55,510 nucleotides of DNA from an uncultured Gammaproteobacteria bacterium (GTDB lineage: Bacteria > Patescibacteriota > Microgenomatia > UBA12405). The stretch is from contig CAZCFJ010000002.1 of the NCBI GenBank assembly GCA_964497945.1, positions 1 through 55,510 of the forward strand, read 5' to 3'. Every line of letters starts with the position of its first letter. Within the stretch, counting starts at the first letter, position 1. Below are positions 16,872-21,977 of the stretch, piece after piece. The notes below the pieces were generated by a model. It was not told the DNA's origin, did no database searches, and saw only the letters and a program-made list of their open reading frames with translations. A program made the position numbers and the translations under genes.

Positions 16872-18167
16872 ATGAGTAAAATTCTTTTAATTAGTCATAT
16901 TTTCCCCCCCGCCGTTGATGGAGGATCACGAGTTATTTATAAAATAGGCCAATACTTAGAAACACAAAATCACCAAACTCTTTACCTTTCATCAGATTGT
17001 TCCAGCACTGATGATTTTACTAAATCAAAATATAAAAAAATATCTAAGATCTATCATCTAAAATCTAACATCTATCTTCCTGTCTATCATCATCTTCGTC
17101 GCCCGCTCAAATTTATTAATTTATTTTTATCTAAAAAACCTGTCCGTCCGGCAGACGGGTCTTATCTCTATCAATTACTAAAAGTTTTTCAAAAAGGGCC
17201 AATATTTAAAATAATTCCTTTTATAAAAGCCACTATTAAAATAATTAAATTTAAACCAGATTTAATTATTGCCGGTCCACTCCCCACCACCATCATCCTC
17301 TATGCTAGGTTATTAAAAAAAATCACTAATCTATACACCCATATAGTCAATTTCCCCTCCCTTCTTCAAGGGAGGGGATTAAGGGGTGGGTTTTGTCGTC
17401 TCTTAATCAACGCTTCCTTTCACCAAACCGATCAGGATTTTTTTCAAAAACCCTTAATCAAAACTCTCCAACAAGCAGATTATTTATGGACTCTGACTCA
17501 TTACGAAACAGATTTTTTCATTAAAAAACTAAACATCAATCCCGAAAAAATTATTCTTGCCGGCAACGGCATCGACCCAAATTTCTTACTTAAAAAATCA
17601 AATAAAAAATCTAAAATCTACGATCTAAAAACTAGGATCTTGTTTATCGGTTCTCTCTCCGCTCACAAAGGCCTGATTACTCTCATTAGTTCTTTCTCTA
17701 ACATCTATCATCTAAGATCTAATATCTCGTTAACCATTGCTGGTCAAAAAACACTCTATTATCCAGAAATTTTAAAAATTATTAAGCAACAACCCAAAGA
17801 AGTTCAAAAAAATATAAAATTTGTTTTTAGTTTCCCCCAAAAAAAACTTAAACAATTAATCGACAATTGTGATGTTTTGGTTTTACCCTCAAACCAAGAA
17901 AGTTTTGGCCTAGTTCTAATCGAAGCTTGGGCCAGACAAAAACCAGTCATTACTAGCGATATTCCTCCTCTCAAAGAAATCGTTACTCAAACTCAAGGTG
18001 GTCTAATTTTTAAATCAAATAATATTTTGGATCTCACCGACAAAATAAACCAACTCTCTAAATCTTCCAAAATCTGTCACCAACTTGGACAAAACGGCCA
18101 TAATTATGTTAAAAATAATTACACATGGCCCATCGTCATCCAAAAAATTTGTCAAAAAGTTTGGTAA
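16872..18167 (+). CDS. GT4-family glycosyltransferase carrying several in-frame repeat insertions
   Basis: Contains KILLISHIFPPAVDGGSRV and VLVLPSNQESFGLVLIEAWARQKPVITSD. It holds three ATCTA-type elements, one GC-rich palindromic element and one further GC hairpin. Confidence 0.8.
   Translation: MSKILLISHIFPPAVDGGSRVIYKIGQYLETQNHQTLYLSSDCSSTDDFTKSKYKKISKIYHLKSNIYLPVYHHLRRPLKFINLFLSKKPVRPADGSYLYQLLKVFQKGPIFKIIPFIKATIKIIKFKPDLIIAGPLPTTIILYARLLKKITNLYTHIVNFPSLLQGRGLRGGFCRLLINASFHQTDQDFFQKPLIKTLQQADYLWTLTHYETDFFIKKLNINPEKIILAGNGIDPNFLLKKSNKKSKIYDLKTRILFIGSLSAHKGLITLISSFSNIYHLRSNISLTIAGQKTLYYPEILKIIKQQPKEVQKNIKFVFSFPQKKLKQLIDNCDVLVLPSNQESFGLVLIEAWARQKPVITSDIPPLKEIVTQTQGGLIFKSNNILDLTDKINQLSKSSKICHQLGQNGHNYVKNNYTWPIVIQKICQKVW
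17041..17090 (+). repeat. ATCTA-type short repeat element, in-frame in a CDS (SKIYHLKSNIYL)
   Basis: TATCTAAGATCTATCATCTAAAATCTAACATCTATC... Confidence 0.7.
17144..17158 (+). repeat. GC-rich hairpin CCGTC CGGCA GACGG inside a CDS
   Basis: A perfect 5-bp stem within an AT-rich gene. It encodes VRPADG. Confidence 0.5.
17354..17394 (+). repeat. GC-rich palindromic element, in-frame in a CDS (PSLLQGRGLRGGF)
   Basis: CCCCTCCC TTCTTCAA GGGAGGGG forms a perfect 8-bp stem, followed by ATTAAGGGGTGGGTTTT. Confidence 0.75.
17608..17640 (+). repeat. ATCTA-type short repeat element, in-frame (SKIYDLKTRIL)
   Basis: AATCTAAAATCTACGATCTAAAAACTAGGATCT. Confidence 0.65.
17697..17727 (+). repeat. ATCTA-type short repeat element, in-frame (SNIYHLRSNIS)
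   Basis: TCTAACATCTATCATCTAAGATCTAATATCT. Confidence 0.75.
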
Positions 18168-18607
18168 TAAAAATCATTGTTTTAGTCGCTATCATTGCCT
18201 CAATTATCACGATTGTCATCCTAACATTTAAAAAAGACAATTATCCTGATAATATCGTCTTCTCTATTAAAGGACAAAACTACTACCTTGAAGTAGCTAA
18301 GACCGAAGAAAGTCAACAAAAAGGTCTTTCCCAAAGAGATGAGCTTTGCCTTGATTGCGGTATGTTTTTCCCCTTCAAAATTCCCGGCCGATATTCTTTT
18401 TGGATGAAAGATACTCACATTCCTTTAGATATTATTTGGTTAAATTCAAAACTAAAAGTTGTTAAAATCGTTACTGCCGTCAAAACCAATTCAGAAATCA
18501 TCTACACCAACAAAAAACTAGCCAAATATGTCATTGAACTAAACGCCAATGAATCTTTTAGACTTGGCCTTAATGTTGGTGATACTCTTGCTATAATCAA
18601 CAATTAA
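18125..18607 (+). CDS. DUF192-family protein with an N-terminal TM anchor
   Basis: Contains GMFFPF...FWMKDTHIPLDIIWL, the DUF192 signature. The ATG at 18125 overlaps the preceding gene by 43 nt, and TTG 18161 is a possible alternative start. Confidence 0.55.
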   Translation: MAHRHPKNLSKSLVIKIIVLVAIIASIITIVILTFKKDNYPDNIVFSIKGQNYYLEVAKTEESQQKGLSQRDELCLDCGMFFPFKIPGRYSFWMKDTHIPLDIIWLNSKLKVVKIVTAVKTNSEIIYTNKKLAKYVIELNANESFRLGLNVGDTLAIINN

Positions 18608-20825: not shown

Positions 20826-20828
20826 TAT

Positions 20829-21977
20829 ATGTTAATTGGTATTGATGGTAACGAAGCCAATATTTCCAACAAAGTTGGAGTTGGTCAATATGCCTTTAAA
20901 TTACTTTGGCATCTCTATCAACTCGATCAAAAAAATAACTACATTATTTATCTTAAAGAAAAACCTTTATCTGATTTACCTAAACCACGAAAAAATTGGC
21001 AATATAAAGTTTTCGGACCAAGCAAATTATGGACCAGACTCGCTCTGCCTCTTCATTTATTTATCGATAAAATTCACTTAGATTTATTTTTTTCTCCCAG
21101 CCATTATTCTCCATCTTTGTCGCCATTTCCTACTATCCCCACTATTCATGATATTGGTTATTTACAATTTCAAAACCAATTTACTAAAAAAGACCTTTAT
21201 CAACTAGTCAACTGGACTCAAGAATCACTCAAAAAATCTTCCCAAATTATCACTGTTTCTCAATTCTCCAAAGACGAAATTATAAAAACTTACAATATTG
21301 ACTCAAACAAAATTCATATTGCTTACAACGGCGTCGATACTCCACCTAAAATTGACTCAAAAACCCAACAAAAAATTTTGTCTTCCTACGATCTACGATC
21401 TAATAACTATTATCTCTATCTCGGTACTCTCAAACCCAACAAAAACATTCCATTTCTTATCGAATCATACTCGTTGCTATTAAAACAATATTTAAAAACT
21501 CCCCGTCTTGTCAAAGAAGGGGATGGGGGAAGATTGGTTCCTAAATTAGTAATTGCCGGTAAAAAAGGTTGGCTTTTTGATGAAATTTTTGCCACTGTCA
21601 AACAAGAGGGGATTGAAAATCAAGTAGTTTTTACTGACTTTGTTACCGAAGACCAAAAATGGACTCTTTATCAAAACGCTATCGCTTCAGTTTTACCCAG
21701 TGTTTACGAAGGTTTTGGTATTCCCGCCATTGAATCAATGAAAATTGGAACTCCAGTCATTGTTTCTAATATTCCACCTTTCCGCGAAGTTGTTCAAAAT
21801 TGTGGTTTGTTTATCGACCCGACTAATTCCAACGATCTTTATCAAAAAATGATTGAAATAAATAATCCTAAAATTAGGCAAAAATTATCAGAAATCGGCA
21901 AAACTCAAGCCGATAAATTTTCCTGGGACTCCACCGCCAAATCAGTCTTACAAGTTTTTGAAAAGTTTAATAAATAA
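20829..21977 (+). CDS. GT4-family glycosyltransferase (tandem paralogue of 19664-20806)
   Basis: The start is set at ATG 20829 (MLIGIDGNEANIS), which parallels MIIGIDVSSVS of its neighbour. It contains LPSVYEGFGIPAIESMKIGTPVIVSN. The track's 20634 start lies inside the previous gene. Confidence 0.85.
   Translation: MLIGIDGNEANISNKVGVGQYAFKLLWHLYQLDQKNNYIIYLKEKPLSDLPKPRKNWQYKVFGPSKLWTRLALPLHLFIDKIHLDLFFSPSHYSPSLSPFPTIPTIHDIGYLQFQNQFTKKDLYQLVNWTQESLKKSSQIITVSQFSKDEIIKTYNIDSNKIHIAYNGVDTPPKIDSKTQQKILSSYDLRSNNYYLYLGTLKPNKNIPFLIESYSLLLKQYLKTPRLVKEGDGGRLVPKLVIAGKKGWLFDEIFATVKQEGIENQVVFTDFVTEDQKWTLYQNAIASVLPSVYEGFGIPAIESMKIGTPVIVSNIPPFREVVQNCGLFIDPTNSNDLYQKMIEINNPKIRQKLSEIGKTQADKFSWDSTAKSVLQVFEKFNK
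21387..21422 (+). repeat. ATCTA-type short repeat element (degenerate), in-frame (SYDLRSNNYYLYL)
   Basis: TACGATCTACGATCTAATAACTATTATCTCTATCTC. Confidence 0.55.
21499..21537 (+). repeat. GC-rich palindromic element, in-frame (TPRLVKEGDGGRLV)
   Basis: CTCCCCGTCTTGTCAAAGAAGGGGATGGGGGAAGATTGG. Confidence 0.65.

Follow-up and report, generated by a model that had tools for sequence, protein, structure and literature searches.

A putative mobile, strand-polar family of triplex-design repeats linked to DUF559 nuclease cassettes in Candidatus Shapirobacteria

We studied a family of short GC-rich elements in a contiguous stretch of 55,510 nucleotides (hereafter the window; GC content ~32%) from a Candidatus Shapirobacteria bacterium, a member of the candidate phyla radiation (CPR). 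The source genome, denoted G000, is an assembly of 664 kb in 53 contigs. Three of its short contigs (C47, C49, and C51) had a GC content of 43-52% compared with ~34% elsewhere; these are probably binning contaminants and were left out of all counts. Four elements stand out from the AT-rich background of the window. One lies directly behind metK, with its T run overlapping the metK stop codon, and the other three lie in frame in a GT4, a GT2, and a second GT4 glycosyltransferase (GT) gene (Table 1). The listing of open reading frames (ORFs) and the Pfam matches agreed with the initial annotation of the window, which had reported four GC-rich segments, three of them in frame in GT genes with the peptides given in Table 1, and G-rich 3' ends that often run into a T tract (the four copies end in T, TT, TTT, or a T run). 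The cores of two copies had been described as almost identical, and the 22-nt cores at 14128 and 19114 indeed differ by one base. In the following, Y denotes the pyrimidine arm of an element, R1 the first purine arm, which pairs with Y, and R2 the second G-rich arm.

Table 1 Positions of the elements and genes in the window, and of a 22-nt palindrome and paired nuclease cassettes elsewhere in the source genome
Feature	Position (strand)	Y	First loop	R1	Second loop	R2	After last arm	Description
Element behind metK	14128-14152 (+)	14128-14136, CCCTGACCT	14137-14140, GTCA	14141-14149, AGGGAAGGG			TTT	Truncated subfamily A copy
Element in first GT4 gene	17354-17394 (+)	17354-17363, CCCCTCCCTT	17364-17367, CTTC	17368-17377, AAGGGAGGGG	17378-17382, ATTAA	17383-17392, GGGGTGGGTT	TT	Complete short form; encodes peptide FPSLLQGRGLRGGF
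Element in GT2 gene	19114-19149 (+)	19114-19122, CCCTGCCCT	GTCA	19127-19135, AGGGAAGGG	TAG	19139-19147, AGGAAGGGT	T run	Subfamily A; encodes peptide TPCPVKGRVEEGF
Element in second GT4 gene	21501-21535 (+)	21501-21509, CCCCGTCTT	GTCA	21514-21522, AAGAAGGGG	ATG	21526-21534, GGGGAAGAT	T	Subfamily B; encodes TPRLVKEGDGGRL; host ORF reads TPRLVKEGDGGRLV there
metK	14151-15254 (-)							S-adenosylmethionine synthetase; all three Pfam S-AdoMet synthetase domains match
First GT4 gene	16872-18167 (+)							GT4 glycosyltransferase, GT-B fold, 431 aa; Pfam Glycos_transf_1 (3.5e-34) and Glyco_transf_4
GT2 gene	18607-19626 (+)							GT2 glycosyltransferase, GT-A fold, 339 aa; Pfam Glycos_transf_2 (2.1e-23)
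Second GT4 gene	20829-21977 (+)							GT4 glycosyltransferase, 382 aa from ATG at 20829; Pfam Glycos_transf_1 (3.6e-30)
Palindrome ACCTGCCTGCCGGCAGGCAGGT	Sites including C4:16843, C9:701, C13:3025, C17:12295, C20:5348, C21:4179, C27:1225, C46:1096							
Two DUF559 cassettes	C19:5383-7800							

Folding of the window copies with ViennaRNA, restricted to Watson-Crick pairs, joined Y with R1 and left R2 free. The DNA fold of the 17354 copy had a free energy of -12.4 kcal/mol (z -4.15), with Y paired to R1 and R2 unpaired, and this copy scored eight of eight triples in the scan described below. The GT2 copy contains a conserved central G.A mismatch. The core of the copy behind metK has one mismatch to the subfamily A core, and its fold is weak (-4.6 kcal/mol). 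On the minus strand, positions 14128-14143 form the sole terminator-like site within 13900-14400, a hairpin followed by CGTTGATTTT, and this copy, which has lost its third arm, may have been recruited to terminate metK on that strand.

The elements share one plan, which consists of Y, a short loop (often GTCA, TTCATCAA, or TTTTTTAA), R1, a linker, R2, and a T run. The linker between R1 and R2 measures 1-5 nt in short forms, to which the window copies belong, and contains an extra GC hairpin in long forms. R2 is R1 reversed, in which G stays G and A stays A or becomes T, as in the pairs GGGGAG and GAGGGG, GGGAGA and AGAGGG, AGAGGGGG and GGGGGAGA, and, in the window copy at 17354, AAGGGAGGGG and GGGGTGGGTT. 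A perfect mirror of R1 was found downstream of 20 out of 82 asymmetric Y/R hairpins, while controls on the same 82 hairpins gave five direct repeats downstream, one mirror upstream, and five direct repeats upstream. The rule holds for no fewer than 12 different R1/R2 sequence pairs. The label "palindromic", which the initial annotation had given to the elements, leaves out their main feature, the third arm, which is a mirror image and neither a repeat nor a complement. Other descriptions of R2 were rejected. As a direct repeat of R1 it gave five perfect matches versus 20 for the mirror rule, and it does not pair with Y because T stands for A just where a Watson-Crick pair is needed. Terminal inverted repeats within a single element were also rejected, since the two ends do not match in that way.

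The mirror relation was then applied as a scan that required eight triples (C.G*G or T.A*A/T), four or more of them C.G*G, and tolerated no more than a single mismatch. It recovered 49 elements in the source genome, which is a lower bound because bulged subfamilies escape the scanner, and none in either control, namely the genome read backwards (equivalent to the opposite arm order, class I) and a 60-nt local shuffle. In 80-kb samples of two related genomes, the scan gave 26 matches (G010) and six matches (G018), and the controls again gave none. It should be noted that related genomes are non-independent samples. GC-rich islands and hairpin listings placed related elements on most contigs of the source genome, and Rfam searches with gathering and permissive thresholds returned nothing relevant to them. 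The initial annotation had proposed a repeat family, to be abandoned if the genome held no further copies, and the many copies recovered by the scan bear this proposal out. Judged by its sequence, the arrangement corresponds to the class II purine-motif intrastrand triplex as defined by Holder et al. (2015, PMC4666352), in which a single DNA strand folds back on itself to give G*G.C, A*A.T, and T*A.T triplets.

Comparison of two subfamilies at the second GT4 site points to a constraint on all three arms. Subfamily A, found at this site in other species, reads CCCTGCCCT / AGGGAAGGG / GGGAAGGGT, and subfamily B reads CCCCGTCTT / AAGAAGGGG / GGGGAAGAT. The two differ at three positions, at each of which all three arms covary (T.A*A <-> C.G*G), and the central G.A*A mismatch is retained in both. 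We regard this covariation as our strongest comparative evidence for a constraint on a three-stranded arrangement.

Of the 49 elements, 13 are inside genes when ORFs are strictly defined, and many copies sit immediately upstream or downstream of genes. Ten hosts other than GTs have Pfam domains on both sides of the insert. These are FtsH, TsaD, TrmD, MiaA, QueA, a RimK-like ATP-grasp enzyme, a Wzy_C protein, a 2-hydroxyacid dehydrogenase, an FkbM methyltransferase, and a protein with a tRNA-ligase anticodon-binding domain. The inserts had been expected to map onto surface loops of both GT folds. For GT-B this expectation was supported by the AlphaFold model of the second GT4 protein (mean predicted local distance difference test score, pLDDT, 89.5), in which the insert forms loop 224-238 (pLDDT 64-72) between helix 207-223 and strand 239-243. 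For GT-A it carries over weakly, as the GT2 model, based on a 12-sequence alignment, has a pLDDT of 66.8 and shows the insert as a low-confidence coil. In-gene copies may survive by landing in variable surface loops, where open frames would encode short loops of Gly, Pro, and charged residues.

The occupancy of orthologous sites varied among relatives. The GT2 gene had orthologues in all 41 relatives searched, and its site was occupied in three of 12 orthologues, those of the source genome, G004 (81% identical), and G009 (57%). The element was absent from the nine others, including that of G019 (62%), which is closer than G009, and the 22-nt core was the same in the source genome and G009 despite diverged flanks. 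In the first GT4 gene, the element is a clean 36-nt insertion, found among 11 orthologues only in the source genome and G009 and absent in the sister genome G004; the G009 copy carries a compensatory C-to-T / G-to-A change in the stem. The second GT4 protein has 2219 homologues at E<=1e-40. Among 119 orthologue clusters, its loop held subfamily A in nine, B in nine, C (a long form reading SSLHQGRMSEGQV) in nine, D in two, and no element in 90. When the loop columns were left out of the tree, presence and absence in these 119 orthologues required at least 22 changes versus a shuffled mean of 26, and the window protein, which carries B, grouped at 90% identity with two C carriers. These comparisons show fast gain, loss, and swapping of elements at orthologous sites. 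Across the order, the subfamily A 22-mer (at most one mismatch) was found in 29 of 132 genomes, all in one family and in nine of 46 genera, at 0-17 copies per genome, and the backwards control of this search gave none. In the orthologue alignments, proteins without the peptide also lacked the DNA, and those with the peptide carried the same DNA element.

Several loops contained further repeats or altered copies. In the G004 orthologue (L018) of the 20829-21977 gene, the purine arm of a subfamily A element is split in frame by ~24 extra bases (CCCTGCCCTGTCAAGG-TCCATAGATACCCCGGAGAGGGTAGAAAGGT-TGGGGAAGCGTTT), which represents either a nested insertion or a decaying copy. Element-free orthologous GT loops (L004, L034, L019, and L027) often hold AT-rich short tandem repeats of the ATCTA or CTACGATCTA type (e.g., AAGATCTATGATCTAAGATCTAAGATCTAC; window site at ~17320-17350), and a second small repeat type thus shares the hot spots of the elements. 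Furthermore, a perfect 22-nt palindrome, ACCTGCCTGCCGGCAGGCAGGT, occurs at least ten times in the source genome, either solo or nested in the second loop of long forms, among them the TsaD copy (Table 1). Because it occurs both solo and nested, this palindrome suggests that the middle hairpins are independent modules capable of inserting into elements.

The orientation of the elements was strictly polar. In all 22 perfect copies of the source genome, the G-rich strand was on the locally C>G strand, and the same polarity was found in all 12 perfect copies of G010 and G018. Exceptions were confined to imperfect matches, which were either opposite-strand secondary matches of one hairpin or the left ends of nuclease cassettes. 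Orientation tracks skew and not genes. The GC skew itself is unusually strong, with absolute values of 0.1-0.45 (G000; G018, C2:54000-133999; G010, C1:20000-99999). Should the genes be aligned with replication in the usual way, the lagging-strand template would contain the G-rich strand, and this placement would favour the folding of DNA that is single-stranded at the fork.

Elements also bound a gene. The source genome contains four DUF559 genes, each with a reverse element just upstream and a forward element at its 3' end, and all four ORFs read through the right-hand element, so that their last codons lie inside this copy. The protein (Vsr-like, PD-(D/E)XK) matches the endonuclease-like structure PDB 3HRL at 2.7e-17, and the D...ExD...H motif is kept in all four copies. 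DUF559 was found in 28 of 38 genomes of the genus, at 0-5 copies each, and among 27 loci of the genus a reverse copy was present upstream in 21 and a forward copy at the ORF end in 17. Subfamilies of the window recur in these cassettes: one in G020 ends in subfamily A, where the nuclease has the C-terminus ...SCPVKGRI, and one in G123 carries the CCCTCCC/GGGAGGG/GGGTGGG subfamily of the 17354 copy. Three DUF559-positive genomes had 7.5-32 elements per 100 kb, and no element was found in the 625 kb sampled from eight congeners without a DUF559 match. Six of these eight were included in a gene tree, where they interleave with DUF559-positive genomes.

Two of the cassettes in the source genome lie 1.4 kb apart on contig C19 (Table 1). 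One middle hairpin occurs, in opposite orientation, both in the first cassette at its right end and in the second at its left end, and these two ends bracket a gene with an in-frame element at 6005.

Taken together, we consider it moderately probable that the segments belong to a mobile, strand-polar, triplex-design repeat family of Candidatus Shapirobacteria that is linked to DUF559 cassettes. The triplex would form most likely on DNA that is transiently single-stranded at replication, which would account for the polarity. The nuclease cassettes would be the autonomous form and the solo elements their non-autonomous derivatives, spreading by nuclease-triggered break repair or by copying into AT-rich sites and existing elements.

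Several points weigh against this reading. Concerning the design, the third arm is absent from the 14128-14152 copy and imperfect in the GT2 copy at 19114-19149, and the scanner missed the most frequent long subfamily (AAGACTTCTCCCTTTTTTAAGGGGAGA...GAGAGGTTT), which contains a bulged G and departs from the rule at one position. In addition, the A/B covariation is a mark of a three-arm constraint and not of the triplex structure itself. Concerning mobility, alignments of filled and empty sites revealed no target-site duplication or sharp insertion boundary, the flanks being diverged loops, and the in-gene class presupposes an open frame, so that disrupted genes would escape it. Concerning the nuclease, DUF559 is not known as a transposase, the left and right ends of one cassette (C33) come from different subfamilies, and an independent-pairs test of DUF559 against elements gave three supported pairs, too few for significance. 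The co-occurrence of nuclease and elements could simply mean that one invading family holds both. Concerning polarity, no skew flip was seen within 40 kb on either side of dnaA in G018 or G010, and long ORFs favoured the C>G strand by 294 to 143. The lack of a sign change at dnaA and the ORFs on the C>G strand would mean that the skew is inverted relative to the usual bacterial rule or that the origin is away from dnaA.

A bolder version of the mobile-family reading is that Vsr-like DUF559 nucleases mobilise a new class of miniature mobile elements, whose ends they recognise as folded single-stranded DNA. We put this forward tentatively, as a possibility that is rather unlikely at present. The recognised end would be the hairpin plus the third strand, and nicking would probably take place at the conserved mismatch or bulge. 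Movement would be in step with replication, which would account for the strict polarity and for the colonising of coding regions.

The foremost rival to a mobile family is that the elements are DNA signals selected by the host, such as Chi- or KOPS-like polar motifs, fork-pausing sites, or bidirectional terminators, in which case the nuclease association would be incidental. Their perfect orientation relative to skew resembles that of known polar motifs, the metK copy scores as terminator-like, many copies immediately adjoin genes, and the exact sequence is kept across genera. However, the eight congeners without any element in 625 kb imply that the elements are dispensable, and on the gene tree one site is filled or empty almost at random. 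A host signal would also hardly be expected to insert into essential coding regions, let alone in both orientations. Many sequence subfamilies, moreover, exist side by side. We consider this account improbable.

Less probable again is that only the hairpin, or a G-quadruplex of the two G-rich arms, matters, the mirror relation being a by-product without any triplex. The Y/R1 hairpins fold well, the truncated copy behind metK has persisted although it lacks R2, and short forms such as GGGAGGGGATTAAGGGGTGGG hold four G-runs, which is formally a quadruplex motif. However, long forms with only two G-runs (GGGGAG...GAGGGG) still obey the mirror rule, and a quadruplex accounts neither for the A-to-A/T correspondence nor for the A/B covariation of three arms, and leaves the requirement for a C-rich arm unexplained. 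Moreover, the class I arrangement, which has the same composition, gave no match compared with 49.

There is a slim chance that the elements act as RNA structures, e.g., regulatory or stabilising mRNA hairpins. A hairpin plus a U run resembles a terminator, and the in-gene copies are all transcribed with their host genes. However, it is the DNA strand, rather than the gene, that orientation follows: seven in-gene copies are co-oriented with the host gene and six are opposite, which indicates a constraint at the DNA rather than the RNA level, and the metK copy is antisense. The elements have no Rfam match, and purine-motif triplexes have been reported not to form in RNA (PMC4666352). Finally, although the frames are open and the peptides recur in several orthologues, the reading of the peptides as conserved functional features of glycosyltransferases is refuted and has a negligible probability, as no such peptide is present in 90 of the 119 orthologues, no orthologue encodes it by unrelated DNA (the finding that, according to the initial annotation, would indicate a conserved protein feature), the conserved DNA element is present wherever the peptide occurs, this DNA is also found at intergenic sites and, in other frames and reversed, in unrelated genes, and the loop is of low model confidence.

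The family has a bearing on genome annotation, where it would appear as proteins with extra Gly/Pro-rich loops and as apparent indels in alignments, and it also bears on strain typing and on the origin of new surface loops. It further indicates that mobile DNA can be tolerated within essential genes of ultra-small CPR genomes, including those for FtsH, TsaD, TrmD, and MiaA. In the literature, we found no description of such elements in CPR bacteria or Shapirobacteria, and no link between DUF559 and repeats.

Among known systems, miniature inverted-repeat transposable elements and insertion sequences are similar in that short solo or paired elements share their ends with a small gene-bearing unit, whose ORF runs into the right-hand inverted repeat; the DUF559 cassettes with their inverted copies are a candidate for such an autonomous unit. 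The Shapirobacteria elements seem to differ in that no target-site duplication was evident between their diverged flanks, the putative enzyme is not a known transposase, and each end is a complete structured element. Repetitive extragenic palindromic (REP) and REPIN elements, with their RAYT (Y1 HUH) transposases (PMC3733652), are likewise GC-rich hairpin repeats of 20-40 nt with high copy number and inverted doublets. In both systems the repeats flank a dedicated gene of single-copy type, and both are suspected to work through single-stranded DNA. However, the elements described here are not extragenic, and their partner gene encodes a PD-(D/E)XK-type DUF559 nuclease. The REP head GTAG or CGTC was not found in the elements, whose 5' flanks are AT-rich and varied (AATT, GACT, ATTG, and others), and the search for Y1_Tnp (PF01797) in the genome gave two sub-threshold matches (18.6 and 18.4 bits versus a cut-off of 23). 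Membership in the REP/REPIN-RAYT system was rejected on these grounds.

The initial annotation had likened the elements to the Rickettsia palindromic elements (RPEs), which comprise RPE-1 to RPE-10 (reviewed in PMC10969869). The analogy holds for behaviour, because in both cases a reduced genome contains short structured repeats that lie in frame in protein genes, add loops to the translated proteins, and are present in some orthologues and absent in others. It probably does not extend to membership. RPEs belong to another phylum and are simple palindromes, whereas the elements described here have a three-arm mirror design, strict polarity, and a candidate partner nuclease. RPEs are also longer (~100-150 bp, compared with 30-75 bp for the Shapirobacteria elements).

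Judged by sequence design, the closest structural counterparts of the elements are the BoxC/PIT/TMECO repeats of Escherichia coli and other Proteobacteria, which are class II intrastrand triplex repeats (Holder et al. 2015, PMC4666352; for BoxC/PIT, Hoyne et al. 2000, as cited in PMC4666352). A stable TMECO triplex was reported in vitro, and the repeat was described as a marker of unstable loci (PMC4666352). The published TMECO pattern, CCCTCNCCC-N3-6-GGGNGAGGG-N3-GGGNGAGGG, had no match on either strand of the source genome. TMECO and the Shapirobacteria elements have the same order of a C-rich arm, a loop, a G-rich arm, a loop, and a G-rich reverse-Hoogsteen arm, with stems of 8-11 nt that are G/C-rich within an otherwise ordinary genome. 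Both often contain one conserved mismatched triplet in mid-stem (usually so in TMECO, PMC4666352), and both have a patchy copy number between close relatives, an association with unstable loci, and inverted pairs. TMECO differs in that it is always intergenic, without strand bias and without a reported link to mobile genes (PMC4666352). In contrast, the Shapirobacteria elements are partly inside genes, are strictly polar, and include many coexisting subfamilies; moreover, their second loop may hold an extra hairpin, and DUF559 genes have them as inverted ends. Triplex-type bacterial repeats have been a puzzle since BoxC/PIT, as they are abundant and conserved but have no known function or means of spread. 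The present family provides a natural three-arm covariation, as comparative evidence for a constraint on the triple design. It also displays strict strand polarity and comes with a candidate partner enzyme that is open to bench experiments. If DUF559 nucleases do mobilise these elements, the BoxC/TMECO repeats of E. coli could be a relic of the same kind of system.

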